From the NCBI GenBank assembly GCA_018061075.1, contig JAGOUW010000004.1, positions 9,192 through 73,191 of the forward strand: a stretch of DNA of 64,000 nucleotides, written 5' to 3'. The stretch is from Candidatus Levyibacteriota bacterium (GTDB taxonomy: Bacteria > Patescibacteriota > Microgenomatia > Levybacterales > UBA12049). Within the stretch, counting starts at the first letter, position 1, and the number at the start of each line of letters is the position of its first letter. A program made the translations under genes and the position numbers. Positions 1 through 51,798 of this stretch are shown here, piece after piece. The notes under the pieces are model-generated. The model saw only the letters and a list, made by a program, of their open reading frames with translations, ran no database searches and had not been told where the DNA came from.

Positions 1-141
1 TAGTCTGTATTTCTCTTTCTGTCCAGGAATATTCCCGCTATCTGCACCTACTTGCCAAAGACCATCTCTTAATCCAGATAGATCTGCTCCTTTTAGTAGC
101 TGCTCCAAGCTTAAGGGTTGATCCTCAGGGCCATGCGTCAT
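1..141 (-). CDS. hypothetical protein, N-terminal fragment running off the window start
   Basis: Open - strand frame from ATG (141-139) to base 1 (MTHGPEDQPLSLEQLLKGADLSGLRDG...). TTGACA-N16-TATAAT ends 7 nt before the ATG. Absent from ORF track because truncated. Confidence 0.45.
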   Translation of the reverse strand, partial: MTHGPEDQPLSLEQLLKGADLSGLRDGLWQVGADSGNIPGQKEKYRL

Positions 142-148
142 ATTGCGG

Positions 149-176
149 ATTATATTCTCTTTTACTTAAGTGTCAA
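149..176 (-). promoter_or_regulatory. promoter, TTGACA-N16-TATAAT, 7 nt from ATG at 141
   Basis: -35 at 176-171 and -10 at 154-149, read on the - strand. Confidence 0.6.
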
Positions 177-188
177 GGCAAATTTTAT

Positions 189-217
189 TTGACAGGAAAA
201 GCTTAAAGTAGTATAAA
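189..217 (+). promoter_or_regulatory. promoter, TTGACA-N17-TATAAA, 8 nt from ATG at 226
   Basis: -35 at 189-194, -10 at 212-217. No SD. Confidence 0.6.
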
Positions 218-225
218 AGTCCACT

Positions 226-849
226 ATGGTAGACCAAGAACCCAGAAGAGGAAAAAAAGAAAAAGATCCAGTGGATTGGAAGGCTGTGGATGATGCTATA
301 GTATTAAAACTCGCAGAGCCAGATCCCGAGGAACCTAAAAGAAGAAGATACGACGCTATTGATGCATCTATGGCAGAGGCTGTAATAAGTGGAATTGATT
401 TAACAGGGCTTTCAGAAAAACAAGTTGCTCATTTGCGAAATCAAATGACTAAAAGAATTCTCGATGTAAAATTAGTTACACTCGCAAGAATTGACAACTA
501 TCCTTTTCTGTCACCAGTTGAGCGAAGTAGAATGGATGAATTCCTTTCGACTCTTCGCGGATTAAATCCAACCATGACTTTTAGATCCCCTAGCGACTAT
601 GCCACACTGTTCACTCAGCAATTAGTCCGTCCTGAACCAGAAGCTGTTACCCAAACTTATCAAGATCCCACTGCTCCGCCTCCGTTTGATCCTGATAGAC
701 CTATTACTCCTGGGAATTTTTTAGATCATGTTACTGGCCCAGTTCAACCAAGATTTGGAAGTGTCACAAGAACCTTACGGATTAAAGATTTTTCTGCGCC
801 TATCGCAAGTAATGATGTATTTGGCCAAAGAAGAGGCTACAGGGGTTAA
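226..849 (+). CDS. hypothetical protein (G+C-rich orphan, 207 aa)
   Basis: Long ORF, visibly higher G+C than background. No TM segment, signal peptide or motif I recognise. TTGACA-N17-TATAAA-N8-ATG directly upstream. Confidence 0.6.
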   Translation: MVDQEPRRGKKEKDPVDWKAVDDAIVLKLAEPDPEEPKRRRYDAIDASMAEAVISGIDLTGLSEKQVAHLRNQMTKRILDVKLVTLARIDNYPFLSPVERSRMDEFLSTLRGLNPTMTFRSPSDYATLFTQQLVRPEPEAVTQTYQDPTAPPPFDPDRPITPGNFLDHVTGPVQPRFGSVTRTLRIKDFSAPIASNDVFGQRRGYRG

Positions 850-850
850 A

Positions 851-1648
851 TTAAATTTCTGGAGCTGGCTTTTCAGGCTTAGAAAAAGTAAGCACTGTCC
901 CAATTCCTATATTACTATCCCAATCATAAACTCTTAGTCCTGACTCCCATGCCAGTCGATTAACTAAAGACATTCTTCTGCCAGCCTCAAATGGACAATC
1001 AAATAAAACAGCTTCTCCGCCAGGCTTCATAACTCTTACTATTTCTCTAAAAGCTGCAGTAAAATCATCAGCCTCTAGGTACTGAAGTAGTCTTGATGAG
1101 TAAACAATGTCCTGCGAATCGTCAGGAAGTGGGATATCTCTTGCATCAGCAAGAATGGGCGTAACGTTCCCTGGCCTACTACCCCACCCCTGAACTGCAT
1201 TTTGTAAAAAAATGTCTACATTTGTAATTGCTATACTTGGGTCTCCTGCGCCAATACCAATTGCACAAAGAGACTCATAACCTCCTCCTACCTCAAGAAC
1301 TGAAATAGCTGAATCTGCGGATTCAGTTTTATCTCTTAAAGCATGAGATAAAAATCCATTTAGAGAGTAATCTGTTTCATCAAGGTATCTATTCATGAGG
1401 AGAATAATTTCATTACTTGGAGGAATCAATCCGGTTGGCTTACCATTTCCATTAACATTAATTTTTAAGTGAGAAAAATCCGGATGCAGACTATATCCTT
1501 GGGGCACGTCTGGATTAGGAGTATGTTCCCCTACGCTTCTCGCCACAACCATATTTGATCCTTCTTCTACTTGAGCTAAAGGAACTAATATGCGCTGTTT
1601 CGGACTTCCACCATCTTGACCACGTCCATCAAATACTTCAGAAACCAT
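851..1648 (-). CDS. class I SAM-dependent methyltransferase with ~110-aa N-terminal extension
   Basis: Motif I-like VLEVGGGYE, later ADARDIPLPDDSQDIVYSS and VMKPGGEAVLFD typical of Methyltransf_11/25-type enzymes. TTGACC-N17-TATAAT-N8-ATG upstream. Confidence 0.7.
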   Translation of the reverse strand: MVSEVFDGRGQDGGSPKQRILVPLAQVEEGSNMVVARSVGEHTPNPDVPQGYSLHPDFSHLKINVNGNGKPTGLIPPSNEIILLMNRYLDETDYSLNGFLSHALRDKTESADSAISVLEVGGGYESLCAIGIGAGDPSIAITNVDIFLQNAVQGWGSRPGNVTPILADARDIPLPDDSQDIVYSSRLLQYLEADDFTAAFREIVRVMKPGGEAVLFDCPFEAGRRMSLVNRLAWESGLRVYDWDSNIGIGTVLTFSKPEKPAPEI

Positions 1649-1656
1649 AAGCGTAA

Positions 1657-1685
1657 ATTATACAATTACTATAAGACTGGGTCAA
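1657..1685 (-). promoter_or_regulatory. promoter, TTGACC-N17-TATAAT, 8 nt from ATG at 1648
   Basis: -35 at 1685-1680, -10 at 1662-1657. Confidence 0.6.
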
Positions 1686-1692
1686 TCATTGA

Positions 1693-2244
1693 TTAGATGC
1701 CCATGAGGTACTGAATAGTTTCGGCGGTTCTAGGAGCTAGTGCTCCTGGAATACTGTCTCTATCAAGACGCGATACATTAGGATGTAGCGCAATTGCAGC
1801 TTCATGCATTCTAAGCGCAGAAGAAAGACCAAACCATCCAATTCTATCGTGCTCATCTGGCGCTGCATTAAATGGCGTTAGATTTCTTGCATCTAAAATA
1901 TATGAATGGAGATTAATTTCCCGACTTACTATTCTTCCACTTACAATCCTAGACAAGACTGAAAGACTTTCCCTGAAAGGAAATAGTTGATTTCTTTCTA
2001 CTACAATTCCTAATTCTTCCATAGCCTCTCTTCTAGCTGTATCAACTAAATCTGCGTCAGCTGGATCTTTTCTTCCACCAAAAAAAGCCCACTGCTCTGA
2101 AAATGAGGATGTATTTCTATGTCCCAGTAAAACTTCCATTTCCCCTTCCCCCTCTTGATCTGGTCTAAGTAAAATTACTTGTGCTGCGGAAATATAAATT
2201 CTTTTTATATCTGGTTCAACTAATGACTCTAATCCTTCAATCAT
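1693..2244 (-). CDS. NUDIX hydrolase
   Basis: Nudix-box variant GGRKDPADADLVDTARREAMEELGI. TTGACT-N16-GATAAT-N8-ATG upstream. Confidence 0.8.
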   Translation of the reverse strand: MIEGLESLVEPDIKRIYISAAQVILLRPDQEGEGEMEVLLGHRNTSSFSEQWAFFGGRKDPADADLVDTARREAMEELGIVVERNQLFPFRESLSVLSRIVSGRIVSREINLHSYILDARNLTPFNAAPDEHDRIGWFGLSSALRMHEAAIALHPNVSRLDRDSIPGALAPRTAETIQYLMGI

Positions 2245-2252
2245 AAGGGGCT

Positions 2253-2280
2253 ATTATCCCAGCTTTTCAAGAAGAGTCAA
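2253..2280 (-). promoter_or_regulatory. promoter, TTGACT-N16-GATAAT, 8 nt from ATG at 2244
   Basis: -35 at 2280-2275, -10 at 2258-2253. Confidence 0.55.
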
Positions 2281-2288
2281 GGATATTT

Positions 2289-2459
2289 CTAGAGGCTTAG
2301 CATTTTCATTACTTCGTAAACGAAAACTCCTGGCCAAAATAGAGCTTTTATTAGACCCCAGATAGTCTCCTGAAATCCCGAAGTTACCTGAATATAATAA
2401 ATCGCGGCTCCAATTATTCCCGTACAATAAATAGCACTTAATCCTGCATTATCTTTCAT
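2289..2459 (-). CDS. small membrane protein (56 aa), below ORF-track cutoff
   Basis: ATG preceded by AAAGGAGGTG SD. Product MKDNAGLSAIYCTGIIGAAIYYIQVTSGFQETIWGLIKALFWPGVFVYEVMKMLSL has two hydrophobic segments. Lies 23 nt downstream of the preceding - strand gene. Confidence 0.45.
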   Translation of the reverse strand: MKDNAGLSAIYCTGIIGAAIYYIQVTSGFQETIWGLIKALFWPGVFVYEVMKMLSL

Positions 2460-2482
2460 TTCTTTCACCTCCTTTATTTTTA

Positions 2483-2974
2483 CTATCCTAAACTTAGGTT
2501 AACATATGTCATATTTCCTGGATCCCTAGAAGACTTAACTTTACGTCTATCATCTACTCTTTCTGTACTTAAAATTATTCTTGCTGGATCATCCCCATCA
2601 CTTGATAGAATTCTATAAACTGGTGTCTCGTGAATTGTTCTAATATTTCCACTACTCATTAAAAAAATTTCTCCAGCAACAAATTCAGATAAACCTTCTA
2701 GATGCGGTCCTGGAGCAGAATTGTTTGCAACTATAAGATCAACCCCTTTACCCTCGATTTGTCCATTTACAAATCTATCTACAACCTGACCAATTAAAGA
2801 TACTTGCGCACCATTAAAAACCACCCTGGTCTTGTCATTTATTTCTGGAATTACTGGAAGAAGCGAGATAACAGCATCTCTCTGAGAGAGAGTAAGTAGT
2901 CTTGCCATTTTCTGATATTTAGCCAATTCAGCTTGTCTATCTAAATAACCCAAATATGCTTCGATAACAGCCAT
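2483..2974 (-). CDS. hypothetical protein (163 aa, start re-called)
   Basis: ORF track starts at a TTG (3028). The internal ATG at 2974 is preceded by TTGACT-N17-TATTTT-N7, matching the window-wide leaderless geometry. No recognisable motif. Confidence 0.55.
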   Translation of the reverse strand: MAVIEAYLGYLDRQAELAKYQKMARLLTLSQRDAVISLLPVIPEINDKTRVVFNGAQVSLIGQVVDRFVNGQIEGKGVDLIVANNSAPGPHLEGLSEFVAGEIFLMSSGNIRTIHETPVYRILSSDGDDPARIILSTERVDDRRKVKSSRDPGNMTYVNLSLG

Positions 2975-2981
2975 CAAACTC

Positions 2982-3010
2982 AAAATACTCCTAAATTTAG
3001 CAGCAGTCAA
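2982..3010 (-). promoter_or_regulatory. promoter, TTGACT-N17-TATTTT, 7 nt from ATG at 2974
   Basis: -35 at 3010-3005, -10 at 2987-2982. Back-to-back with the GT2 promoter. Confidence 0.5.
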
Positions 3011-6293: not shown

Positions 6294-6323
6294 TTTATAT
6301 CTTTATTAAGGACTTGGTGTCAA
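6294..6323 (-). promoter_or_regulatory. promoter, TTGACA-N18-TATAAA, 10 nt from the WbqC-like ATG
   Basis: -35 at 6323-6318, -10 at 6299-6294. Confidence 0.45.
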
Positions 6324-7862: not shown

Positions 7863-8750
7863 TTATTGTACTAAATTTTCTTTTTGAATAAATAGTTCTG
7901 CTGGAAAATTCTTAGATTTTTTAAATGAGTAATCTGGATATAAAATTAAGTATTCAAAATCAAAGTACTTCAAAAGTTTTTCAGGAGAAGCAAAGAACAA
8001 ACATGTTGCTAATCCGTCTGCAGTAACTGCATCCCTAGAAACAACCCATGTTGCCAAAATTTTATCTGGAGATTTTAAAGAATTTGCATCAATTATATGA
8101 TGAAATCTATCCCATGCTCTCCTGTTTCCAGAAGAAGCTGCAATACTTTGATTTTTTATTTTTGCGATCCCTATGACCTGTTTAAAATTTCCTGGATGTT
8201 CAAGGCCTACTGATAATGTTTTTTCGTCATTTTTATAATAAATATCTCCCCCACCATCAATCGTAAAAGTATTTATATTATTTTCAAGTAAAAGTTTTGC
8301 AATGATATCAATTAAGTATCCTTTTCCAAGGCCTCCAAAATCAAGAACAAATGGTTTTGTAATAGTTAATACTGGAAATTTAAATGAATAAATTTCAGAA
8401 GATTTAGGTAGTTTATTTATTTCTCCAGGCGCTAATTTATATTCCGAATCGTATCCCGCCTCGACTAAAGTATTTCCGATAAGAAGTGTGAATGCACTAT
8501 TTGTAATAAGTTCAAGTTTTTCGTAAAGAGAAAATAATTCTTTTGAGTCATGGGGAAATTTATATTCGCCTTTTTTTTCAGAAATTTTCCATACAATTGA
8601 ATCTTTTCGAAAACGGGAATATGTTTTATCAAACTCTTCAATTCTATCTGAAATAATTTTCAGGATTTCTTCCCGTGTTTTGGACGAATTAAAACAATCG
8701 ATCACCCATCGGGTTCCGATTGCTTCAAACGCCAGCTGAAAAGAATTCAT
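7863..8750 (-). CDS. apbE: FAD:protein FMN transferase (ApbE family)
   Basis: ApbE-like motifs FGGLGKGYLID and AASSGNRRAW..HHIID. Sits between the FMN-binding protein and the RnfD-FNR fusion. Confidence 0.85.
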   Translation of the reverse strand: MNSFQLAFEAIGTRWVIDCFNSSKTREEILKIISDRIEEFDKTYSRFRKDSIVWKISEKKGEYKFPHDSKELFSLYEKLELITNSAFTLLIGNTLVEAGYDSEYKLAPGEINKLPKSSEIYSFKFPVLTITKPFVLDFGGLGKGYLIDIIAKLLLENNINTFTIDGGGDIYYKNDEKTLSVGLEHPGNFKQVIGIAKIKNQSIAASSGNRRAWDRFHHIIDANSLKSPDKILATWVVSRDAVTADGLATCLFFASPEKLLKYFDFEYLILYPDYSFKKSKNFPAELFIQKENLVQ

Positions 8751-8752
8751 AA

Positions 8753-9253
8753 TTAAGAACTAGCCTGAGCTTGTGCCTTAATATCTTCGATCGCCGCATT
8801 AAATCCAATTGGAGTTAAGCTTGATCCAGAAATTTTACCAAGATTTACTTCATCAATATTTTTTCCGACAACTTGTTCTTTATAGTTAGCGATGAAATCT
8901 GCTTGTTTTTCTTTTGATATTGGCGCCTTAGCTTGCGCTACAACTTCTACTTCTTCAATTACTCCATTTGCAAGCGTAACAGTTACATCAATTGATTCTG
9001 TTCCTGAATGATATGAATATTCTCCAGCTGCTTCGTATGTTCCATCTTTATATGTAGCTGTGGCTCCTGCTTCGCTGGTCTCCTCCATAGCTCCATTTAC
9101 AGTTTCGTCCTGTGGAGCTTCGACTACTGCTTGCTCTTTATTTTTAGTAAGAACAAATCCTCCAATAGCAACTGCTGCGATAATAACTACCACCGCAATT
9201 CCTATCATGATCATGTTTTTGTTCATACCAGTTTTTTGTGTTTCTTCTTCCAT
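8753..9253 (-). CDS. membrane-anchored FMN-binding domain protein (RnfG/NqrC-like)
   Basis: N-terminal TM anchor, YKDGTYEAAGEY start of the FMN_bind domain, and candidate flavinylation motif GKISGSSLT. GGAGGTG SD before the ATG. Confidence 0.8.
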   Translation of the reverse strand: MEEETQKTGMNKNMIMIGIAVVVIIAAVAIGGFVLTKNKEQAVVEAPQDETVNGAMEETSEAGATATYKDGTYEAAGEYSYHSGTESIDVTVTLANGVIEEVEVVAQAKAPISKEKQADFIANYKEQVVGKNIDEVNLGKISGSSLTPIGFNAAIEDIKAQAQASS

Positions 9254-9311
9254 TTATTCACCTCCTATCTCTATTTTAGATTAGATTAACAACCTTTAAA
9301 TCAGTTGAATT

Positions 9312-9320
9312 ATTATAACA
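9312..9320 (-). promoter_or_regulatory. extended -10 (TGTTATAAT) for the FMN-binding/apbE/RnfD-FNR operon
   Basis: TGnTATAAT read on the - strand. Followed by a ~50-nt leader ending in a GGAGGTG SD. Confidence 0.45.
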
Positions 9321-9324
9321 AATC

Positions 9325-10431
9325 TTAATTTAAATATTTTTTATAAAAGTCTACTGTCTTATCCATAGCCTCGGTAAAAGCACTCCCTGTAAAATTATGT
9401 CCCCCGCTTTGATATTCATTTAATTCGTGAGGGATTGTTGTTTTATTTAGAATTTCATTAAAATTTCTGCTATATCTTATATCTACTACTGAGTCATCCA
9501 CTGTATGATTAAGTGAAATAGCGCCAGTTATTCCATCTAAATAATTCGTAACTGGCACCATTTTCCAGAAACTTGAATTAGGATCAAATGTGCCATATTT
9601 CTCAAACATTTCATTTCGTTTTTTTCGACTAGGTGAGTCTTCACTTGGAGGCTGATAACTGTTATCCTCGATGCTAAATTCAGAGAAATCAGAATATGTG
9701 TAAACAGCTCCTCCCCAAATCGCAATTGCGGGTATATCAGGTTTTGCACCCAGCGCACGAGAGACAACATTTCCTGCCATAGAATGCCCCCATAATCCAA
9801 TCTTACTCGGATTTACGAACTCATAATTCTCAAGCGCTGAATATGCGCTTAAAACATCAACAACATAATCAGAAGAATAATATGCACCTCCCGGATCTCC
9901 TTCACTTTGACCGTGCCCCCTTAGATCAATTTTAAAAACTACAAATCCATTTCGGGCTAGATAATCAACGTACGAAGAGTAATTGCTAAAGGTCTGATAA
10001 TTCGCAGGGGGTATATATCCATGAACAAAAATAATTGCTGGCCAACCACCCTCAGGCTGTTTACCCGTTGGAATTGTTAACTGAGCAAAAATAGTATTTC
10101 CATCAGATTCATAACTTGCTAGATTTGAAGCATAATCTCCATTTCTAGAATTTTCCTCTATTACCGATAACTCACTCACATACTTCCTACTCCTCAAATA
10201 TGGAATCGTAAGCTCCTCGAATGGATAAGGAGTTGGCGTAGGAACTACTGACGATTTTACATTTGATATTTTTTGAGCTGAACCACCCTTTGAAATAACC
10301 GAATAAAGTCCACCAAAAACCAAAGCATTTATTCCAATTAATGCTCCTAATAATAAAATTATTTTCCTTCTTTTCTGGGTTGGAGTTAAAGTTGGGATTT
10401 CTGAAAGCTGGGGCTGCGCTTTTTCTTCCAT
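9325..10431 (-). CDS. membrane-anchored alpha/beta hydrolase (S9/dienelactone-hydrolase-like serine hydrolase)
   Basis: N-terminal TM. Nucleophile elbow GLWGHSMAG, Asp in TVDDSVV, His in SGGHNF. Paralog of 16917-17954. Confidence 0.75.
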   Translation of the reverse strand: MEEKAQPQLSEIPTLTPTQKRRKIILLLGALIGINALVFGGLYSVISKGGSAQKISNVKSSVVPTPTPYPFEELTIPYLRSRKYVSELSVIEENSRNGDYASNLASYESDGNTIFAQLTIPTGKQPEGGWPAIIFVHGYIPPANYQTFSNYSSYVDYLARNGFVVFKIDLRGHGQSEGDPGGAYYSSDYVVDVLSAYSALENYEFVNPSKIGLWGHSMAGNVVSRALGAKPDIPAIAIWGGAVYTYSDFSEFSIEDNSYQPPSEDSPSRKKRNEMFEKYGTFDPNSSFWKMVPVTNYLDGITGAISLNHTVDDSVVDIRYSRNFNEILNKTTIPHELNEYQSGGHNFTGSAFTEAMDKTVDFYKKYLN

Positions 10432-17954: not shown

Positions 17955-18074
17955 TAATTTCTAAAAATTATAACTTTTCATTAAAACTTTATCAATAGAA
18001 TCTAAATTTTTTCTGAAGCCTAATTTCCCCATATTTTGACTCGCATATATGATATACTTTTTCAGGTTTTTGAA

Positions 18075-20318
18075 ATGAAATTAATTAATCTTGCATTTAT
18101 TATTCCCTCATACAATGAGTCAGAAAATATTATTCTCCTAATAAATAAAATTAGAAAGTTTTATCCAAAATCTAAAATAATAATCGTTGACGATTCCACT
18201 CCTGAAGAAAAAAATAAAATTCAAAAGCTTCTCTTAAAACCTCATAAAAGAAATGTCGTTTATTATCCTCGCAAGCAGAAAATGGGTAGAGGAAGTGCTG
18301 TAATTGAAGGATTTAAAATTGCCCTAGAAGATAAAAATATAACTCATGCTTTTGAGATGGATGCTGATCTTTCCCATAACCCAGAGGAAGCAAGAGAATT
18401 TATTAGTAAATTAAAAAAGGAAAATTCAGACCTCGTAGTAGGCTCTAGGTATTTATCGGAAAGTAAAATAATTAAATGGGCAATGTGGCGTGTTGTGATG
18501 AGTAAAATTATTAATAAATTTTTAAGCCTACTCTTAAGCCTCAATCTTTCAGATTACACAAATGGATACAGACTATATAGTAGACGCGCTTTAGAATTTT
18601 TAACAGAAACAAAACTTGAGTCCAGTGGATTTATTGTACTTTCAGAAACAGCATTCAAACTTAAAAAAAATAATTTTAAAATTTCTGAAGTTCCAACAAC
18701 TTTTGTAGAAAGACAATATGGAAAATCCTCATATGGAAATAGAGAACTCTTAGTATCTTTAGTTAATATACTATCAATAAGATTCAAAACTCCAAGAAAT
18801 ATAAAAATATTTTGCTTAACTTTGCTCATCGCATTAACTCTAGCATTAAGATTTTGGAATTTGAACGAAATGGGTAGAACTTGGGATGAAGGAGCATATT
18901 CAGAAAATGGCTACACCATGAACAACCTGATTCTAGATAAGGATTTCGACAATCCTTTCTTTAGATTTACATTTGATCATCCTCCAATTGGCAGATACAT
19001 CTATGGCCTTGCATCTTCGTTTGACATCCAAAGTTTTGAGAAAGATGGAACACCAATCTATAACTATGATTACACTTATGCAAGGTTACCTGCAATCATC
19101 TTTTCAACTCTTTCAGTTTTACTTGTGGCACTTTTTGGATGGAAATTTATATCTCCTTTTGTTGGCCTCACATCAGGAATAATACTAGCAATGCTTCCTA
19201 CGTTTCTTGGATATTCGCAACTTTCAACACTTGAAAGCCCTGTCATGTTTTTCTTTACAGCTTCTGTTTTTCTTTTTATCAACTTGCTCCATAAATTTTC
19301 TTATAAAACATTAATTTTGACAGGAATTTTTACTGGCCTTGCTCTTGGAGTAAAACAAACAAATATTTTTATTTATCCCCTCTTCGCTGCAATTTATTTC
19401 CTATGGTATTTCTTGAAAGATAAAAAAAGAAAACCAAATATAACTGCGGAAATAATTACTCCTTTATTTTTAATTTTTATAATTTCGATCATTACCTTTA
19501 CACTTCTCTGGCCAACAGCATTTTTAAATTTAAATGATGCTATAGCTATTGAAAAAGCAATGTGGTTTTCAAGCGAAGTAAAACTCCCACCTCCTGAAGT
19601 TTTCTTTGGTCGACTTATGTTAGTACCAATTGTTTATTATCCAGTTTATTTTATAATAACCACTCCATTTTTAATTATAATTTTATTTTTTGTTGGGATG
19701 AAGGCAATTGATATTAGAAAAAAATTTGTTTTATACGCAATCCTTCTGTGGTTTATCCTTCCTTTTTTCCAATCTTTTTATCCATTCAAACAACATGGCC
19801 TTCGCTATATAATCCAAATATATGCTCCGCTCGCATTAATAGCTGCCATCGGACTTGAATTCATTTTAGGAATTTTTAAAGAAAAATTTAAAATTAAATA
19901 TCTTGCGATATTTGCCATCATAATTTATTTTTTAATAATTTTAAAAAGCATAACTCCCTACTACTTAGATTATTTTAATATTCTTCCTGGCGGCGTAAAT
20001 GGAGTCTATAGTTCACGACTTTTTCAAATTGGCTGGTGGGGTCAGGGAAATCGTGAAGCAGGAATTTACCTAAGAGATAATGCGCCTAAAGGATCTAGTA
20101 TTGGTCTCGCTATTTCTCCAATTCATTCATTCCCTTTTTATAACGAATATAAAGCTGAAAGATATAATGAAAATCAAAAATATGACTATGTGGTTGTAAA
20201 TTATTTTAATATTTTAAGAGAAGGATTTGATGATAATAAAATTAAAAAAGAATATAAACTGATTCATGAAGTAACCGCAGACAAGGCGACACTTGTTTAT
20301 ATTTACCAGAAGAAATAA
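18075..20318 (+). CDS. fusion of Dpm1-like GT2 polyprenol-phosphate glycosyltransferase and GT-C (ArnT/PMT-like) membrane glycosyltransferase
   Basis: N-terminal part has FIIPSYNESENI, IIIVDDSTPE, EMDADLSH and GSRY (Dpm1/GtrB-like). The C-terminal ~500 aa is polytopic, with RTWDEGAY and FDHPPIGRY loop motifs typical of ArnT/PMT_2 enzymes. ATG at 18075 preferred over TTG at 18036. Confidence 0.75.
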   Translation: MKLINLAFIIPSYNESENIILLINKIRKFYPKSKIIIVDDSTPEEKNKIQKLLLKPHKRNVVYYPRKQKMGRGSAVIEGFKIALEDKNITHAFEMDADLSHNPEEAREFISKLKKENSDLVVGSRYLSESKIIKWAMWRVVMSKIINKFLSLLLSLNLSDYTNGYRLYSRRALEFLTETKLESSGFIVLSETAFKLKKNNFKISEVPTTFVERQYGKSSYGNRELLVSLVNILSIRFKTPRNIKIFCLTLLIALTLALRFWNLNEMGRTWDEGAYSENGYTMNNLILDKDFDNPFFRFTFDHPPIGRYIYGLASSFDIQSFEKDGTPIYNYDYTYARLPAIIFSTLSVLLVALFGWKFISPFVGLTSGIILAMLPTFLGYSQLSTLESPVMFFFTASVFLFINLLHKFSYKTLILTGIFTGLALGVKQTNIFIYPLFAAIYFLWYFLKDKKRKPNITAEIITPLFLIFIISIITFTLLWPTAFLNLNDAIAIEKAMWFSSEVKLPPPEVFFGRLMLVPIVYYPVYFIITTPFLIIILFFVGMKAIDIRKKFVLYAILLWFILPFFQSFYPFKQHGLRYIIQIYAPLALIAAIGLEFILGIFKEKFKIKYLAIFAIIIYFLIILKSITPYYLDYFNILPGGVNGVYSSRLFQIGWWGQGNREAGIYLRDNAPKGSSIGLAISPIHSFPFYNEYKAERYNENQKYDYVVVNYFNILREGFDDNKIKKEYKLIHEVTADKATLVYIYQKK

Positions 20319-21416
20319 TTATCTTAGATCCAAAGTTTCACCTGAATAAACAAGATTCAACGGTTTTATAATTACTTGCTTTTCGCCTTTTTCCACATAC
20401 CCTACATTGATTGCTTTAAATTTATTTTTCGAAATAATTTTTAAACATTTTTCCACATCTTTTTCAGAAATAACCAAACAGTAGTCTTGGCCCATGTTAT
20501 AAGTTTCATACATTTCATAATCAGAAAGATTTGCCTGTTTTTGAATAAAATCAAAAACCGGTTGAGGCTTAAAAATCTTTTCAATTACATATGTAAATTT
20601 CGGACGTCCTCTCATAATTTTTCTTACACCGTGTCCAGTGATATTTGAAATATAATGAATATCAACATTATTTTTTTGTAAGTCAGCAATTGTTTTTGCA
20701 TAAATGTTTGAAGGAGTTAATAAACTCTCCCCATACAATTTTCCATTAGGTAACCTGGTCAGATATCCCTTAAGAAGTTTTTTTGCGATTGCTCGAGCTA
20801 GAGAAATTCCATTTGCATTTACTCCATTACTCTTTATGAAAATTATTCGGTCACCTGCTTTTATATTTTTATCAGATATCAATTTCCCTGTTGATTCAAT
20901 AACTCCAATTGCGGATCCCCCAAGATCCACTGATTCTTTTTCAATAATTCCCTTTAGGGTCGGCGTCTCGCCTCCTCCCCAAACAACTCCTGAAATATTA
21001 CATGCTTTTTCCCATCCTTTAATAAATTTGTCCATTCTTTTTGGATCTTGCAAAAATCCATCTCCAGCATCTGCCCAATATGCATTTAAAATAAGAGGCC
21101 TAGCTCCTACCGAAACGAGATCATTAATAATAGTCGCCACTGTATCTCGAGCAATCACCTCATAAAATGACTTCTTAGTCTTTTTATATATCTCATCTGC
21201 TACCAGACTTTTTGTTCCCAACCCTTCCATAACAAATGCCATTAACTGGTTGCCATTTTTAAAAACAAAGGCAGACTCACCCCTACTATCTGATATTTCG
21301 CTAAAACTTTTCGGAAAATTTTTTGCAGTTTTTCTCGCTGAATCTTGAGCAAGTTTTTTAATAGGATCTAATTTTTCGTAATTTGCTCCTGTTGCTGAAT
21401 ATGTAATTTTTTTCAT
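20319..21416 (-). CDS. purM: phosphoribosylformylglycinamidine cyclo-ligase (AIR synthase)
   Basis: PurM/AIRS-family fold signatures (EGLGTKS, DLVSVGARP, GGGETP). Last gene of the pur operon. Confidence 0.85.
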   Translation of the reverse strand: MKKITYSATGANYEKLDPIKKLAQDSARKTAKNFPKSFSEISDSRGESAFVFKNGNQLMAFVMEGLGTKSLVADEIYKKTKKSFYEVIARDTVATIINDLVSVGARPLILNAYWADAGDGFLQDPKRMDKFIKGWEKACNISGVVWGGGETPTLKGIIEKESVDLGGSAIGVIESTGKLISDKNIKAGDRIIFIKSNGVNANGISLARAIAKKLLKGYLTRLPNGKLYGESLLTPSNIYAKTIADLQKNNVDIHYISNITGHGVRKIMRGRPKFTYVIEKIFKPQPVFDFIQKQANLSDYEMYETYNMGQDYCLVISEKDVEKCLKIISKNKFKAINVGYVEKGEKQVIIKPLNLVYSGETLDLR

Positions 21417-21721
21417 TCTGGTTTTATTTCATGTACTACTGCTAATTCTACGCTCGCATTTTTAATACTTAGAACTCTTCCATCGCCTGCTCCGAAAACA
21501 TCCCCTTTTAAAAATGTTTCCCTACCTCCTCCATCCGCCAGCCAACTTATTCTCCGCCCATCTGCTGTTAATGTTTCATTTCCATATCTAACTTCACATG
21601 ACCCTCTCAATAATTGAAAATATCTTTTTGGGTGTCCAAAACCCACCATTGCACTTTCTCCTGGCACAGTTACCAAATCTAAATTTTTCCCAAATTCTGG
21701 ATTTTCATTCGGCCTTGTCAT
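21413..21721 (-). CDS. hypothetical small beta-rich protein (102 aa) embedded in the pur operon
   Basis: G+C-rich ORF between purQ and purM. ATG at 21721 preceded by TTGTAA-N17-TATAAT-N7 lying inside the purQ 3' end. 4-nt overlap with purM. Confidence 0.5.
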   Translation of the reverse strand: MTRPNENPEFGKNLDLVTVPGESAMVGFGHPKRYFQLLRGSCEVRYGNETLTADGRRISWLADGGGRETFLKGDVFGAGDGRVLSIKNASVELAVVHEIKPE

Positions 21722-22517
21722 GCTGGGAATTATATTCTGAAGCAACAAACTTTACAATGTTTTGAAAAAGAGGGAGGCCTTGAGGACTCTTTATCAAACC
21801 CCTTCTCCAATTTGGGTGCTGCTCTACCCTTACGAAACATTCTGGATGTGGCATAAGCCCCAAAATTCTTCCAGAAGTATCCGTTACTCCGACAATTGCA
21901 TTAATTGAACCATTTGGATTTGCTGGATAATCTTGGGTTGGATTTCCTTTTTCATCCACATATCGAAATGCTACTAAATCCTCATCTTCAATTCTTTTTA
22001 TATTTTTGTCATCTGCGTAGAACTTCCCTTCCCCGTGTGCCACTGGATACCATAATATTTGATCAGTCATCCCATCTAGAAACTTTGACTTAGAATTCGA
22101 TTCTACTTTTACTCTTATCCATCTGCATTCAAAATGTCCTGAATCATTATTAGTAAGAGTGACATCCATATTTCCTAAACTATTAAACGGCACAAGACCA
22201 GTGCGCACTAAAACTTGAAATCCATTACACACACCAAGAACTGCTGTATTTTTTCTTTTTATGAATTTTCTAATTTCATCTCCCAAATATGCGACTATTT
22301 CAGTCGCTAGAATTTTTCCTGATATTATGTCGTCTCCATAGGCAAATCCTCCAGGAATTCCTAAAATTTGATAGTCAGATAATTTTTCTTTTTTACTTCT
22401 CAAGTCATTAACATGAACTAGCTTTACGTCAGCCCCAGCCATTTTAAACGCGAAGACCATGTCTTCGTCTCTATTTATTCCATCTGCTTTTATAATAATT
22501 GCTTTGGGTTTTTTCAT
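21705..22517 (-). CDS. purQ: phosphoribosylformylglycinamidine synthase, glutamine amidotransferase subunit
   Basis: Triad amidotransferase GVCNGFQ and MPHPE motifs. Start re-called to MKKPKAIIIK, giving an ATGA overlap with the purL stop. Confidence 0.9.
   Translation of the reverse strand: MKKPKAIIIKADGINRDEDMVFAFKMAGADVKLVHVNDLRSKKEKLSDYQILGIPGGFAYGDDIISGKILATEIVAYLGDEIRKFIKRKNTAVLGVCNGFQVLVRTGLVPFNSLGNMDVTLTNNDSGHFECRWIRVKVESNSKSKFLDGMTDQILWYPVAHGEGKFYADDKNIKRIEDEDLVAFRYVDEKGNPTQDYPANPNGSINAIVGVTDTSGRILGLMPHPECFVRVEQHPNWRRGLIKSPQGLPLFQNIVKFVASEYNSQHDKAE
21729..21757 (-). promoter_or_regulatory. internal promoter, TTGTAA-N17-TATAAT, 7 nt from ATG at 21721, inside the purQ coding sequence
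   Basis: -35 at 21757-21752, -10 at 21734-21729. Confidence 0.5.
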
Positions 22518-25318
22518 GGAAATAATTTCCTCATAGGTTTTTGCCAAGAATTTTTTAGTTCCGACAAATTTGCACTGAACATTTTTTTACTATTTACGAC
22601 TTCAATATTTTTTTCTTTTTTTGTTTCTCCCAAAATTAAATATTTAACTTTTTTAAAAAGTTTCTTTGCAATTTCGCGATTCTCAACTTCTACTAAAAAT
22701 GCTCCTGCTGTTTCATTAAATAGAAAATAATCTTCTCTTTTATTTTTAGGCAATCTCAAGCTTACTCCCATGTCCCCACCTATACACATTTCAAAAACAG
22801 AAGTTAAAATTCCTCCCTCTGATATATCATGGCAAGATAAAATCTTCCCGTCCAAAATTCCCTTACTGATAACTTTGGCAATTTTAGAAAATTCTATTAA
22901 ATCTATTCTTGGAACTCTTTCACCGAGTAAATTATTTACATCGAAGTAAATAGACCCTCCCATAGAGTTTGTGTCTAAACTTCCTACAAGAACAATTACA
23001 GAATTATTTTTCTTTAGATCCGAAGAAATCGTTTTTGTAGTATCTGGAATTCTTCCAAAAACAGAAATACATAAAACTGGTGGAATTTTTATAACCGTGT
23101 CCCCTTTTCTGTAAGTTGATGACAAACTATCTTTTCCGGATATTACTGGGATTTTAAAATTCTTCATTAAGTCGACTACTGCGTCAACTGATTTATCAAG
23201 ACTATATAAAGATTCTTCGTCAGGAAAAGGCCAAATATAATTATTAATAAGCGAAGCTTCTTCTATGTCTCCGCCAACTGAAACATAGTTTGATAGCGCC
23301 TCTACTCCAGCCCAAATACTTCCATCATAAGGATTAATTCTATTTAAGATTGGGTTAAGTCCGTGAGACAAAACCATTCCATATTTTTTATCTAAAATTG
23401 GACGAACGACTACACTATCATTTGGTGAATCGAGTTTCTCACCAGAATAAGGCTGCAAATCGTTTGTCCCTTGAACTGAATGATCATACATTCTAACAAT
23501 TGGCTCTTTAGAGTTTATATTTCCATGGGACAAAACTTTTTTATATATTTCAATCCATTCAGATTCTTTTTTTGGAAGCTTTGGCTCTTTTTTAGAAAGC
23601 TCTAGCTTGCTCTTTTGGCCAATCATTAATCTTTGAGGTAAACCGTTATGCAAGAATTCCATTGATAAGTTTGCGATTTGTTTTTTACCATAAAAAACTT
23701 CAAGTTTTTTTGTATCTGTAAAATTTCCTAAAATTGCTGCTTCGACATTATATTTTTTGCAAATTTCTAAAAACTTTTTAATATCTTTTTTGGCAATCGC
23801 TATTACCATTCTCTCTTGTGATTCTGAAACCCAAATTTCCCAGGGGGATAATCCGTGATACTTTAAGGGAGCATTTTCTAAATCCACTTTTACTCCAGTT
23901 TTAGAACCTATCTCACCAACTGCTGAGGAAAAACCTCCAGCTCCACAATCTGTTATTGCCCGAACCAAATCATGATCCCGAGCTTCTAGAATCGCATCAA
24001 ACATTCTTTTTTCTTCTATCGCATTTCCTATTTGAACAGCTGATGAATTTATAGAAATTGTTTTATCTGTCATTTCAGCAGAAGAAAATGTTGCACCGTG
24101 AATTCCGTCTCTTCCCGTTCTCCCTCCGACTGCAACTATTAAATCTCCTTTAACAGGTGTTCCTTTTTTAGCTTTTTTTGTGGGAATTATTCCATATGCG
24201 CCCACTATTACAGTAGGTTTTGCTCTAAAATCTTCATGAAAGTGAATTGAGCCGTTATTTGTAGGGATTCCCATTCGATTTCCGTAATCTCTAACTCCCT
24301 CCACAACTCTTTTTAGTAAATAATCTGGACTAAGGCACCCTGGCGGAAGATCTTTTTTAGAGAGATTTGGATCAGCAAAACAAAAAATGTCAGTCGAAGC
24401 AATTGCTTTTGCTCCTTGTCCAGTGCCAAGTACATCTCGAAATACTCCTCCGCTTCCTGTCATCGCCCCTCCATATGGCTCAATCGCAGAAGGACTATTG
24501 TGTGTTTCTACTTTTCCGCAGATTGAATACCCATCATAAAATTTCATGACACCTGAATTATCGCCAAATGCAGAGACTATATTCTTTGGATGTTTTAATG
24601 CTTCAGTTTTTATTCTTTCAATTAATGGCTTTTTCTTTTTCCCATCAATTATTAAATTTGCTTTAAAAGTTTTATGCGCACAGTGCTCGCTCCAAGTTTG
24701 CGCAAGGGTTTCAAGCTCAATATCATTTGGATCTCTTTTAATTTTTCTAAAATACTCCTGAATTACTTTCATCTCTGATAAATTTAAAAATAATTTATCT
24801 TTTGAAAGCTCCAATAAATCTTCATCAGAACAATTTCTGATTGAGACGATATTCGTAGGTCCTACGATTCCTGAAATTTGTAATGTCTTAGGAGGCTTAT
24901 CCACTAGGTATTCAATGAGGGGATTATAAAGACCTAGCTCATTTATATTTTCTAAACTTAATGCTCCAAAAAAATGATACTCCCATGAAGAATCCGCTGC
25001 GATTAGTTTTACTTTTAAATCTTTTGCGGATTTTAAAATAGATGCAACTTCAGGATTCATAACTCCGGGCTTGTAAGCGACTTCTATCTTTGAACGGGCA
25101 TTAAAAATTTGCTCATCAATCGTGTATTTTTGATTAATTGACTCTGATAACAATTTTTCAGCTAAAAATTTCGTGGATTTTTTATCTATCCCTTCAAGTC
25201 TATAGATTCTAACAGATCTTACTTTTGTAACTGGAGTTTTTTTAAGTTTATTTAAAACTCCTATTCCTTTTAAATCCTCCCATTCATTTTTCGATGCTAC
25301 TCTAACTGTATAAATCAT
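22514..25318 (-). CDS. purL: phosphoribosylformylglycinamidine synthase subunit PurL with fused N-terminal PurS-like domain
   Basis: WSEHCAHKTF motif and duplicated AIRS domains. This motif lies ~170 aa further from the N-terminus than in small PurL. No separate purS in the operon. Confidence 0.9.
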   Translation of the reverse strand: MIYTVRVASKNEWEDLKGIGVLNKLKKTPVTKVRSVRIYRLEGIDKKSTKFLAEKLLSESINQKYTIDEQIFNARSKIEVAYKPGVMNPEVASILKSAKDLKVKLIAADSSWEYHFFGALSLENINELGLYNPLIEYLVDKPPKTLQISGIVGPTNIVSIRNCSDEDLLELSKDKLFLNLSEMKVIQEYFRKIKRDPNDIELETLAQTWSEHCAHKTFKANLIIDGKKKKPLIERIKTEALKHPKNIVSAFGDNSGVMKFYDGYSICGKVETHNSPSAIEPYGGAMTGSGGVFRDVLGTGQGAKAIASTDIFCFADPNLSKKDLPPGCLSPDYLLKRVVEGVRDYGNRMGIPTNNGSIHFHEDFRAKPTVIVGAYGIIPTKKAKKGTPVKGDLIVAVGGRTGRDGIHGATFSSAEMTDKTISINSSAVQIGNAIEEKRMFDAILEARDHDLVRAITDCGAGGFSSAVGEIGSKTGVKVDLENAPLKYHGLSPWEIWVSESQERMVIAIAKKDIKKFLEICKKYNVEAAILGNFTDTKKLEVFYGKKQIANLSMEFLHNGLPQRLMIGQKSKLELSKKEPKLPKKESEWIEIYKKVLSHGNINSKEPIVRMYDHSVQGTNDLQPYSGEKLDSPNDSVVVRPILDKKYGMVLSHGLNPILNRINPYDGSIWAGVEALSNYVSVGGDIEEASLINNYIWPFPDEESLYSLDKSVDAVVDLMKNFKIPVISGKDSLSSTYRKGDTVIKIPPVLCISVFGRIPDTTKTISSDLKKNNSVIVLVGSLDTNSMGGSIYFDVNNLLGERVPRIDLIEFSKIAKVISKGILDGKILSCHDISEGGILTSVFEMCIGGDMGVSLRLPKNKREDYFLFNETAGAFLVEVENREIAKKLFKKVKYLILGETKKEKNIEVVNSKKMFSANLSELKNSWQKPMRKLFP

Positions 25319-26631
25319 GAGCTATCCCTTTCCATATCTCTCCATCCGACATCACTTCTAAAATGCAGATTATTATTTTCAATTGAAATCAGTGACATTG
25401 CTCCGTATGCTCTCATTCGCGCTTGGGATAAAGTCAAACCAACACCGGTCAAATGGAAAACTCTTCCACCAGTCGCCACAAATTTATTTTCTTTTTTAGA
25501 AATTCCTGCACCGTAAATATTTATATTCGGTAACTTACTAACCTTCTCAAGTCCTTTTATTTGTGCGCCTTTTACTTTTGAATAATCTATTGGATATCCC
25601 CTGCTGCATCCTGCAACACTAACCCGGATTAATTTATCCTTTTTTATTTTCAATTTATTAAGTTTTTTTTCTAAAACTGCCTCAACAATACTTAAATAGT
25701 CAGATGTAATTCCAGGAATCAAAACTTGCGCTTCCGGATCTCCCCATCTGGAATTAAACTCCACGATTTTAATTTCAGCTTGCCCTGAGCTTACCGAATG
25801 GATAATCATTCCGCCTAAATATAAAATTCCAGAATATGGTCTCTGTTCTTTCTTCATTCCTTTCATGAATGGAACAAGGATTTTGTTTTCAATTTCTTTT
25901 TCAACTTTTGGTGTAATAATCTTTGGATTTGAAACACAGCCCATTCCTCCAGTGTTAGGACCAATATCTCCATCGAATGCTGTTTTATGATCCTGTGCAG
26001 ATCCAAGAATCTTGAAGCTTTCCCCATCACAAACCGCAAATAAAGAAAATTCTTCGCCAATCATCGCTTCTTCAACTACAAAAGTTTCTCCTGCTTTTCC
26101 AAAACTTTTCATTTGTTTGATTGCTAAAATCGCCTCTTTTTTATTCTCTGCTTTAATCGCCCCTTTTCCTAAAGCAAGCCCTGATGCCTTCACATATAAA
26201 GGTTGCTCTCTTAGTGATTTAACATAAAAAATCCCCTTACTCTGTGAATCAAAACTTTTAAAATGCGGGATTGGAAGATGATACTTAAGCATAAAATTTC
26301 TTGACCATTCCTTACTCCACTCAATCTCTGATGATTTTTGTGTTGGACCAAATGTCTTTATTTCCAATTCAGTTAATTTATCTACAAAACCTAATGCAAT
26401 TGGATCATCCTGTGCGACATCTACTAAATCTATGTCAAACTTTTTAATAGCATCCTTAATTTTTTCAAAATCTATCGAGGGAATATCAAAAAGAGAAGTT
26501 ACTTTTTTATTTGAAAAATCTATAAATGGATTTCCTGGCGCAACAAAAATTTTTTTTACTTTTTTATTTTTCGAATAAGCATCTGCTATTACGTGTTCCC
26601 GTCCGCCCGAACCTAAAATTAAAATATTCAT
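25315..26631 (-). CDS. purD: phosphoribosylamine-glycine ligase
   Basis: MNILILGSGGREH start, ATP-grasp core, GGRVF C-terminal region. Confidence 0.9.
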   Translation of the reverse strand: MNILILGSGGREHVIADAYSKNKKVKKIFVAPGNPFIDFSNKKVTSLFDIPSIDFEKIKDAIKKFDIDLVDVAQDDPIALGFVDKLTELEIKTFGPTQKSSEIEWSKEWSRNFMLKYHLPIPHFKSFDSQSKGIFYVKSLREQPLYVKASGLALGKGAIKAENKKEAILAIKQMKSFGKAGETFVVEEAMIGEEFSLFAVCDGESFKILGSAQDHKTAFDGDIGPNTGGMGCVSNPKIITPKVEKEIENKILVPFMKGMKKEQRPYSGILYLGGMIIHSVSSGQAEIKIVEFNSRWGDPEAQVLIPGITSDYLSIVEAVLEKKLNKLKIKKDKLIRVSVAGCSRGYPIDYSKVKGAQIKGLEKVSKLPNINIYGAGISKKENKFVATGGRVFHLTGVGLTLSQARMRAYGAMSLISIENNNLHFRSDVGWRDMERDSS

Positions 26632-27227
26632 AATTTACAAAGTTTTTTTAAAACTTTAACGTACATTTTATTTTCTTTCACCTTTAATCTTTTATACAAA
26701 CTTTCAGTATCATCATTCTTTTTAATTTTCTCAAATGTTCTATCTAATACTTTCCCAAAATCGAATTCGTTTGAAATAAAATGAATTGATGATCCAGCGT
26801 AAGTTGCATTATTATTTAAAAAATTTTTAATTGCAACATCTGTTAATTTTCCTCGATTCCAAATTGCTGTTGTACCATCTGGATTTTCTACTTTCCCATT
26901 TATTTTATCGGGAATCAAACCTGGGTGAAGATTTAAGATTTTATTTTTATACTTACTAATCAAATTATCATCAATTATCAATCTCCATCCAGCTAAACAT
27001 ATAAAATCAATGTCATAATTATTTAATATTTTAAATAAATTTTTTTTAGTTACTATTTCTGTAGGAATTTTGTTTTCCCTTGCTCTCTGCAAACCATATG
27101 CGTCGGTGTCTGAGCTAATTACAACTGAAATTTTCGCATTTAAACTTTTATTATTGATTGCGTCAATTATTGCCTGGAGATTAGAACCTGTGCCTTTATT
27201 AGAAACTAAAACTGCGAGAGACTTCAT
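26628..27227 (-). CDS. purN: phosphoribosylglycinamide formyltransferase
   Basis: LVSNKGTGSNLQAI and LNLHPGLIP motifs. Confidence 0.85.
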   Translation of the reverse strand: MKSLAVLVSNKGTGSNLQAIIDAINNKSLNAKISVVISSDTDAYGLQRARENKIPTEIVTKKNLFKILNNYDIDFICLAGWRLIIDDNLISKYKNKILNLHPGLIPDKINGKVENPDGTTAIWNRGKLTDVAIKNFLNNNATYAGSSIHFISNEFDFGKVLDRTFEKIKKNDDTESLYKRLKVKENKMYVKVLKKLCKL

Positions 27228-28642: not shown

Positions 28643-28645
28643 CAG

Positions 28646-47409: not shown

Positions 47410-47423
47410 ACTCGAAGTATACC

Positions 47424-51791: not shown

Positions 51792-51798
51792 TATTAAT

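Follow-up and report, generated by a model that had tools for sequence, protein, structure and literature searches.

What, if anything, unites nine open reading frames (ORFs) that belong to no recognisable protein family and lie scattered between the housekeeping genes of a 64-kb stretch of bacterial DNA? This stretch, hereafter the window, is gene-dense, has a G+C content of ~34% and carries the majority of its genes on the minus strand. An earlier note on the same DNA had singled out the nine, numbered here in window order from O1 (1-141) to O9 (61912-62268), as G+C-rich orphan genes, each monocistronic behind a near-consensus promoter with an AAAG(N)G-like purine tract directly before the -10 box. 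As explanations it had put forward a common regulon, a shared origin and, thirdly, merely the biased amino-acid content of disordered proteins.

A special status of the nine-ORF set is not supported by our analysis; the set is ordinary and uses the same promoters as many housekeeping genes. In the reading that we prefer, to which as a whole we give a probability of about 0.7, the nine are ordinary protein-coding genes whose families are confined to a small clade of uncultured low-G+C bacteria, and the downstream half of the spacer carries a directional element, AAAG(N)G, that is general to the promoters of this clade. The window was compared with a contig of the same strain (L001) and with loci from related uncultured genomes, available as metagenome-assembled genomes (MAGs; L005-L013).

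Amino-acid composition accounts for the G+C excess

The two lines of sequence counted by hand in the earlier note are exact (34/60 G+C in 55261-55320, 10/60 in 18121-18180), and the excess they illustrate is present in the set: G+C is 0.407 for the eight full-length ORFs and 0.353 for the 61 other long ORFs (Mann-Whitney p=2e-5). It is neither universal nor exclusive. O5, at 0.364, is average for the window, and ORFs outside the set are equally or more G+C-rich, among them 49142-49579 (0.463), 41284-42033 (0.413) and the methyltransferase gene at 851-1648 (0.405). The first of these has the highest G+C in the window and a ratio of GARP to FYMINK residues second to that of O4.

The excess resides in the first two codon positions, where the nine-ORF set stands at 0.546 against 0.474 in the other ORFs (GC1) and at 0.444 against 0.347 (GC2). 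At the third position the two groups are alike (GC3 0.236 vs 0.242, p=0.48). When the proteins were recoded with the codon usage of the genome, observed minus expected G+C came to -0.003 for the set and +0.001 for the other ORFs (p=0.37). Since GC1 and GC2 are raised, GC3 is equal and the expected G+C matches that observed, it is amino-acid composition that causes the excess, and the codons are the normal AT-biased ones of the genome. The amino-acid bias that the earlier note had considered is thus the correct source, and no G+C excess beyond composition is left. Relative to the other proteins the nine contain 2.16 times as much Arg and 1.75 times as much Pro, with Lys reduced to 0.54; they are also richer in Thr, Asp and Ala and poorer in Tyr, Phe, Asn, Ile and Cys. 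An Arg/Pro-rich make-up despite the AT bias is a small point on what constrains these proteins.

Nine constrained genes of narrow distribution

All nine ORFs appear in the ORF listing of the window at the positions given for them. Pfam and NCBIfam returned sub-threshold noise only for the whole set, and no transmembrane segment was found, the top 19-residue Kyte-Doolittle mean being <=1.16 over the nine. They stand singly or in pairs, as described, among housekeeping genes (purM/purQ/purL, cysS, ddl, zwf, pgl, rpsB and glyA, with gnd, prs, purK, dnaX, tsf and frr also in the neighbourhood). Profile searches against PDB sequences, PHROGs and PADLOC gave no match, nor did any member of the O5 or O6 family yield a hit in Pfam. 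The sub-threshold Pfam hits included Phage_fiber_2 for O8 and a capsid protein family for O5, both of which we dismissed because the PHROGs search found nothing. An all-against-all BLASTP comparison yielded no pair at E<0.1; the nine are not paralogues, and a shared origin is not supported.

The term orphan fits as regards the narrow distribution; it does not fit in the strict sense, as related uncultured genomes supply 2-14 homologues for each ORF. A search of 5.8 billion clustered proteins gave 6 for O2 and 14 for O8, and an exhaustive HMMER search of 1.84 billion cluster representatives with O3-O9 gave 30 hits together, or 2-9 relatives per ORF, in which identity falls to ~25-45% while lengths and reading frames are kept. 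Synteny is retained in L010-L013 for the arrangements zwf|O7-O8|pgl, glyA-O9-rpsB and O6-DHH|ddl, with an extra 176-residue ORF inserted between O7 and O8 in L011. The ratio of nonsynonymous to synonymous substitution rates (dN/dS) is 0.10-0.33 for O2 and O6-O9 against 0.035-0.10 in housekeeping neighbours, so that these genes are constrained yet have dN/dS values 3-6 times those of housekeeping genes.

O1 (1-141, minus strand) represents the first 47 codons of a 249-residue protein whose remainder lies left of the window and whose full length was obtained from L001; a paralogue of 253 residues (27% identity, E=1e-14) is encoded nearby, outside the window. O2 (226-849, plus strand) encodes 207 residues, with dN/dS 0.10 against L005. 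O3 (21413-21721, minus strand; 102 residues) lies within a purL-purQ-O3-purM operon and has homologues P0012 (68%) and P0030 (42%), and those of O4 (38839-39189, plus strand; 116 residues) include P0016 (66%) and P0034 (38%). The acidic, 224-residue product of O5 (40551-41225, minus strand) belongs to the widest family among the nine, with 9 cluster representatives at 21-78% identity in the alignment. O6 (47424-48095, minus strand; 223 residues; dN/dS 0.15) has a same-strand neighbour 14 nt downstream, a DHH-like gene of 300 residues; O6 keeps its syntenic position in L010 and L012 and is missing from L011. O7 (55205-55603, plus strand; 132 residues; dN/dS 0.20-0.29) and O8 (55637-56437, plus strand; 266 residues; dN/dS 0.17-0.33) form a pair. 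O9 (61912-62268, minus strand; 118 residues; dN/dS 0.24-0.29) starts 16 nt behind glyA, and rpsB follows it at a distance of 86 nt. Against the locus in L013, O8 shows a synonymous divergence (dS) of 0.20 where the adjoining genes show 0.6-1.1, a sign of recombination.

Composition scores for O2-O9 lean towards disorder, yet all eight fall on or below the Uversky boundary. AlphaFold2 models were made for O2 and O8. The O2 model has a helical core (residues 11-140) with a predicted local distance difference test score (pLDDT) of 77-91, followed by a disordered, Pro-rich last third. O8 is predicted to consist of two tandem alpha+beta domains (pLDDT 76, predicted template modelling score 0.71), in each of which a long helix would pack against an antiparallel sheet of 4-5 strands. 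Comparison of both models with the PDB and a viral structure library gave nothing meaningful, and no viral fold matched with a template modelling score (TM-score) >0.3. The description of the proteins as disordered does not fit, because the O2 core and O8 are confidently folded in these models. Judged from sequence, the nine are lineage-restricted, constrained and soluble proteins.

Two alternatives bear on the status of these genes. Some of the nine might be spurious, non-coding ORFs whose promoters drive something else, as the missing family matches and the shortness of several ORFs could suggest; O3 and O4, with 2-3 homologues each, are the least secure. We consider this highly improbable in view of the dN/dS values of O2 and O6-O9, the frames and lengths preserved in relatives down to ~25-45% identity, and the confident folds predicted for O2 and O8. 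Alternatively, transfer from a G+C-richer donor, or descent from prophage or mobile-element remnants, would explain composition and private promoters together. The higher G+C, the lack of homologues in ordinary bacteria, the gain and loss among relatives (O6 and the additional ORF in L011) and a dN/dS above that of housekeeping genes agree with a foreign origin, and in an ancient transfer the third codon positions could have equilibrated since. We regard such an origin as very unlikely: neither GC3 nor codon usage departs from that of the genome, the genes stand scattered one by one in synteny that is conserved across genomes whose housekeeping proteins are 85-95% identical, the PHROGs, PADLOC and viral-fold comparisons were empty, and no integrase, repeats or tRNA lie nearby. 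Ordinary genes of a small clade thus remain our preferred account.

Three further ORFs without a Pfam match lie outside the original list, at 49142-49579 (plus strand), 41284-42033 (minus strand) and 37068-37760 (minus strand). The first has a dN/dS of 0.10-0.15 and a conserved leaderless-type TTGACA/TAAACT promoter of its own, without the AAAG tract.

Promoters at leaderless distance are widespread in the window

To place the promoters of the nine among those of their neighbours, 70 nt upstream of every gene were read (69 gene starts, with 1931 control ATGs). A TANNNT hexamer stops short of the start by 6 nt at 14 genes, by 7 nt at 10 and by 8 nt at 6, that is at 30/69, where ~5 would be expected from all ATGs of the window; examples are the starts at 1648, 2244, 10431, 31738, 51791, 52713, 53398, 55151, 59844 and 60423. 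Shine-Dalgarno (SD)-like motifs occur at 9/69 starts, which is the rate at control ATGs and no enrichment. Clear GGAGG sites, ~7-10 nt from the start, are confined to genes without a -10 signal, such as those at 8753, 31798 and 36688. A promoter score of >=9/12 was reached at 14/69 starts and at 0.7% of the control ATGs. The typical promoter has a TTGACA-like box 16-18 nt from a TATAAT-like box, both hexamers being kept in orthologous regions. We base the sigma-70-type assignment on position and conservation, since the raw tally of promoter-like sites over 20 kb does not exceed that in shuffled sequence (63 vs 58.7).

A sigma-70-type promoter whose -10 box ends 6-8 nt before the ATG would start transcription at or beside the start codon and would give a leaderless mRNA without an SD site. 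It is on account of this spacing that we propose leaderless mRNAs, which are probably widespread in this genome and would concern about half of its genes.

The near-consensus promoters ascribed to all nine are found at eight; O9 lacks a convincing promoter of its own. That each gene is monocistronic is not established: O3 lies in the pur operon, where it shares 17 nt with purQ and 4 nt with purM, O9 follows glyA and O6 precedes the DHH-like gene. At O2, O4 and O8 a convergent gene adjoins directly or shares 1-4 nt (the 3' end of O4 overlaps cysS by 4 nt), which leaves no space for a terminator behind them. Terminator-like hairpins number 13 in the window against 12.3 in shuffles, as expected by chance, and none follows one of the nine. 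Elsewhere, the gene at 46507-47409 (minus strand) has a conserved TATACT 6 nt before its ATG, inside the terminal part of the gene before it (47410-47440), and many seemingly operon-internal genes may have promoters of their own.

The AAAG tract is general to promoters of the clade

An AAAG(N)G-like tract does precede the -10 box at the five orphan promoters for which it had been described. It is common in the window at large: AAAG occurs in the last 10 nt of the spacer at 10/24 leaderless-type promoters against a background of 7.4% (p=4e-6). These comprise 5/8 promoters of the nine-ORF set and 5/16 others (p=0.20), so that the tract is essentially as common at other promoters and specificity for the orphans is not borne out. 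Carriers outside the set include the promoters of purK, an alpha/beta hydrolase gene, a WbqC-family gene and a NUDIX gene. Because general promoters, housekeeping ones included, carry the tract, it does not mark an orphan regulon.

The same signal emerged when the window and nine related loci were pooled to give 53 non-redundant promoters. Of all spacer 4-mers AAAG is the most enriched there, present in 21/53 against 12% (p=3e-7), while two 17-nt blocks upstream of the -35 box contain it in 6/53 and 2/53 cases. Sense-strand coding 17-mers contain it at 15% (p=2e-5 vs spacers), and composition-matched shuffles of the spacers gave 8.9 +/- 2.5 with AAAG and never reached 21 in 2000 trials. The tract is directional, its reverse complement CTTT being found in 1/53 spacers, and in 17/21 cases its G is found 1-5 nt ahead of the -10 hexamer. 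The picture in orthologous promoters is mixed: the tract is kept at O1, O2 and O7, degenerate at O6 and not conserved at O8. Such an element would most likely act on RNA polymerase itself, either through a spacer contact resembling that of an extended -10 or through DNA conformation.

A purine-rich tract could instead be a distant SD-like site, used from longer transcripts, with the TATAAT-like box a mere AT-rich spacer. AAAGAG and AAAGGAG resemble the SD consensus, and some promoters of a small-gene island next to O1 (described below) have AAAAGGGGAG or AAGGAG 12-13 nt before the ATG. The tract is nevertheless not a ribosome-binding site, as SD-core 4-mers occur in only 4/53 spacers. It ends 13-17 nt before the ATG where clear GGAGG sites lie at ~7-10 nt, TTGACA stands at exactly 16-18 nt from the -10 box with both conserved across genomes, and SD-like motifs are not enriched at starts overall. 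We would put hardly any weight on the SD alternative, and retain the promoter element.

Individual promoters

The five orphan promoters with a tract read, in coordinates and purines, as the earlier note had quoted them. That of O1 (149-176, minus strand) consists of TTGACA, the 16-nt spacer CTTAAGTAAAAGAGAA and TATAAT, 7 nt from the ATG, and is of the leaderless type; its tract is kept as AAAGAG/AAAGAA in the orthologous promoters of L007, L008 and L009. Back to back with it stands the O2 promoter (189-217, plus strand), in which TTGACA, the 17-nt spacer GGAAAAGCTTAAAGTAG and TATAAA are followed by 8 nt to the ATG. From the -35 box through the ATG, TAAAGTAG included, this promoter is kept nearly base for base in five MAGs, with O2 proteins only 55-65% identical. 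The O6 promoter (48102-48130, minus strand) has TTGATT, the 17-nt spacer TACTGAGGCTAAAAGAG and TAAAAT, 6 nt from the ATG, and in its orthologues the tract is reduced to an A-rich run and then G (AATAAGG, AAAATAG).

The O7 promoter (55168-55196, plus strand; TTGACA, 17 nt CCAAAAACTTCAAAGAG, TATATT, 8 nt to the ATG) contains CTTCAAAGAGTATATT, which is invariant across four genomes, and the tract CTTCAAAGAG is kept there. It interlocks with the divergent zwf promoter (55158-55186, minus strand; TTGAAG, 17 nt, TATAAT, 6 nt to the ATG): over 55158-55196 the spacer of each promoter contains, on the opposite strand, the -35 box of its partner, an arrangement kept in relatives, and the zwf -35 box (TTGAAG/TTGAAA) is the reverse complement of part of the O7 tract. 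In the O8 promoter (55600-55628, plus strand; TTGACA, 17 nt GCCAAAGCATTAAAGCG, TATATT, 8 nt to the ATG) the -35 hexamer (tTGAca; 55600-55605) includes the stop codon of O7, TGA. This arrangement too is kept in relatives, as are the -35 box, the -10 box and the stretch after the -10.

The remaining three promoters of the set are without AAAG. O3 has a promoter-like site in the 3' end of purQ (21729-21757, minus strand; TTGTAA, 17 nt, TATAAT, 7 nt to the ATG). The O4 promoter (38799-38827, plus strand; TTGTCA, 17 nt, TATATT, 11 nt to the ATG) is of the extended -10 type, with TG two bases before the -10 box, and that of O5 (41234-41262, minus strand) has TTGATT, 17 nt and TATAAT, 8 nt from the ATG.

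Among the carriers outside the set, the promoter of the housekeeping gene purK (31745-31772, minus strand) shows the same architecture and tract: TTGACA, 16 nt ATTCTTAGAAAAGAAA, TAAAAT and 6 nt to the ATG. Those of the alpha/beta hydrolase gene (17967-17995, minus strand; TTGATA, 17 nt AAGTTTTAATGAAAAGT, TATAAT), the NUDIX gene (2253-2280, minus strand; TTGACT, 16 nt CTTCTTGAAAAGCTGG, GATAAT, 8 nt to the ATG) and the WbqC-family gene (6294-6323, minus strand; TTGACA, 18 nt CCAAGTCCTTAATAAAGA, TATAAA) follow suit, the NUDIX promoter being kept in L007 and the WbqC-family promoter in L007 and L008.

Is there a dedicated regulon?

A common regulon of the nine is not supported by the AAAG tract, which occurs at other promoters too. 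Several observations nevertheless weigh against our reading, and they are collected here. The likeness of the O2, O7 and O8 spacers, to which the earlier note had drawn attention, was confirmed: 11, 10 and 11 of 17 positions are identical across the pairs, while 14 other spacers of the window, compared in 91 pairs, share 5.2 positions on average and never as many as 10. A small-gene island beside O1 and O2 shares the spacer yyKAAGyAAAAGrG before at least eight unrelated proteins. Strong promoters of their own stand at 8/9 orphans and at 10/34 other potential operon heads (p=0.002). The tract is in excess at the orphans (odds ratio 3.7), though not significantly. At O8 it is not conserved (TAAAGCG, TTAAGCG, AAACTAG), and its conservation at O7 is confounded, because there it overlaps the divergent zwf -35 box. 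Leaderless starts and transcript boundaries are read from sequence geometry, the Arg/Pro richness of faster-evolving proteins in an AT-biased genome is left unaccounted for, and the Levybacteria label of the organism is the annotation of a single submitter, with relatives that carry a Gammaproteobacteria label. As to the strong promoters, genes inserted singly between housekeeping operons would need promoters of their own, which would account for their presence at eight of the nine. Besides the likeness of the three spacers, this excess is what stays particular to the set.

The island lies left of window position 1 (L001:665-3128; L007:4500-9915; L008:~300-3008; L009:~8100-9913) and consists of genes for proteins of 87-266 residues without a known family, O1 being its first member. 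Its promoters follow the pattern TTGAC(A/T)-yyKAAGyAAAAGrG-TATAAT, with one leaderless promoter per gene. Gene content varies between related genomes, and a stand-alone response-regulator receiver gene flanks the island. Gene duplication was considered as the source of the shared promoters and dismissed, since at least ten protein types are present and no more than two pairs of them are paralogues; this is why the proteins behind the common spacer count as unrelated.

The excess of strong promoters, the alike O2, O7 and O8 spacers and the island spacer leave room for a specific regulator. In that case the orphans and the island would be co-regulated by a factor reading the purine-rich spacer, either a transcription factor bound between the -35 and -10 boxes or an alternative sigma factor or sigma-associated protein, and it would fit that the entire O2 promoter is better conserved than the O2 protein. 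Against such a regulon stand the tracts at the purK, hydrolase, WbqC and NUDIX promoters, and the lack of a significant tie to genes without a family (p=0.20 in the window; 14/28 vs 6/18 in a hand tally from the gene tables). The promoters of O3, O4 and O5 (3/8) have no tract and O9 has no promoter; the tract shifts by several nucleotides, is not palindromic, and its two AAAG-like copies keep no fixed spacing; it is not conserved at O8, as shown above; and no candidate regulator was found. We consider a dedicated regulon unlikely. One could further imagine a CPR lineage in which about half of the genes are leaderless from strong promoters with a hitherto undescribed AAAG spacer element, and in which a subclass with a longer shared spacer (yyKAAGyAAAAGrG, and the O2/O7/O8 type) constitutes a real regulon of a variable set of small, Arg/Pro-rich, clade-specific proteins, for example episymbiosis factors; this too we consider unlikely. 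The general element of the clade's promoters is what we carry forward.

Other putative regulatory elements

Two further features of the window may be regulatory. A 14-bp perfect palindrome, ATATATCGATATAT, occurs twice, at 48143-48156 and at 60448-60461, the latter within a perfect palindrome of 22 bp (60444-60465). The first copy is situated between the promoters of O6 and ddl, which diverge; the second overlaps the -35 position of the frr promoter, and in L010 the palindrome stands in tandem upstream of ddl (~2389-2412), which makes it a candidate operator. Upstream of rpsB, the 62-nt stretch that directly precedes the start codon (61826-61887, minus strand) is almost 100% identical in four genomes in which other intergenic DNA has diverged. 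It contains the inverted repeat CATTCAGAT...ATCTGAATG, has neither an SD site nor a -10 box near the ATG and gave no Rfam match; it is probably a structured autoregulatory leader for S2. Rfam at the gathering threshold gave no match in the window or in L005-L009, and a tRNA search of the window found none.

The organism and its metabolic genes

O8 is 100% identical to an NCBI protein entitled 'MAG: hypothetical protein KBD51_02610 [Candidatus Levybacteria bacterium]' (Patescibacteria/Microgenomates). Prochlorococcus and Ca. Actinomarinales, which the G+C content and the leaderless signal had at first suggested as the source, were dismissed in view of this exact match. The public MAGs L005-L009 are titled 'uncultured Gammaproteobacteria bacterium', despite the identical, Levybacteria-labelled protein (P0037) in the clade. 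The S2 protein of the window scores 185-201 bits against ribosomes that, going by their PDB codes, we take to be those of Firmicutes, Thermus and Actinobacteria, and ~155 bits against E. coli; PurL and PurQ are encoded as separate genes. The S2 scores and the split PurL/PurQ argue against the Gammaproteobacteria labels, which are probably wrong.

Most bacteria of the Candidate Phyla Radiation (CPR) are said to be without nucleotide synthesis (PMC6744442). De novo purine genes are present here (purK, purL, purQ and purM, with guaA and guaB in relatives), as are prs and, for the oxidative pentose-phosphate pathway, zwf, pgl and gnd (window 20319-31738, 42629-43534 and 50883-57229; L011:17947-20647). 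PurL, at 934 residues, has a weak PurS-like match over residues 76-106, which suggests a PurS-PurL fusion. Signs of recombination are seen in the methyltransferase and NUDIX genes (851-2244), which are 66% and 43% identical in L005 where identity is otherwise 96-97%.

Comparison with known gene classes and promoter types

CPR genomes are known for clade-specific hypothetical protein families (PMC6744442), and hypothetical genes between housekeeping operons are for this reason expected here. As they are the CPR norm and the G+C excess is compositional, the nine-ORF observation is in itself of little import. Like the CPR- and Microgenomates-enriched families of Meheust et al. 2019 (PMC6744442), the nine are conserved, domainless, restricted to a CPR sublineage and interspersed with a reduced housekeeping set. 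Those families, however, span a superphylum and many are predicted membrane proteins, whereas the nine are soluble and have 2-14 homologues each. With taxonomically restricted genes they share the absence of detectable homologues beyond a small clade and a dN/dS 3-6 times that of housekeeping genes; unlike these, they are not strain-specific, are syntenic and are clearly constrained. New ORFs arising from AT-rich DNA would be rich in Lys, Asn and Ile, the opposite of the Arg/Pro-rich proteins found here.

What is worth carrying forward, on the basis of sequence statistics and conservation across genomes, is the probable leaderless expression in a CPR lineage and the clade-wide AAAG element. 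The latter recalls two promoter elements known from E. coli and Bacillus, the extended -10 (TGn) and the '-16 region' (TRTG), which are likewise short, directional non-template-strand signals directly upstream of the -10 box at many unrelated promoters. It differs in being AAAG(N)G rather than TG, in its looser position (G 1-5 nt before the hexamer) and in occurring together with strong -35 boxes instead of making up for weak ones, and its function is putative. True TGn promoters also occur in the window, at O4 (38799-38827) and at 9325, 48209 and 58723. The AAAG element offers a simple testable hypothesis on promoter recognition by the RNA polymerase of an uncultured phylum, and a practical rule for locating promoters and true start codons in this clade.

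The leaderless geometry matches that of 'group C' of GeneMarkS-2, defined by a Pribnow box localised 6-8 nt before first genes and by frequent leaderless transcription, and described until now chiefly for Actinobacteria and Deinococcus-Thermus (PMC6028130). In both, first genes have their -10 box 6-8 nt ahead of the start codon and the remaining genes use SD sites or translational coupling, and the half of genes proposed here compares with 25-50% of operons reported for group C. The differences are that a CPR/Microgenomates lineage is not among the groups listed there, that the TTGACA -35 box is usually strong here and an extra AAAG spacer signal is present, and that leaderless expression is deduced from geometry. 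In the library searched, no paper was found that ties leaderless transcription to CPR bacteria; one that seemed to connect TM7 with 'group C' and leaderless genes did so through its reference list only. Should transcript mapping confirm it, the group C architecture would extend beyond Actinobacteria and Deinococcus-Thermus to Microgenomates, and gene-start calling would be affected in thousands of CPR MAGs, where those callers that rely on SD sites would misplace starts.

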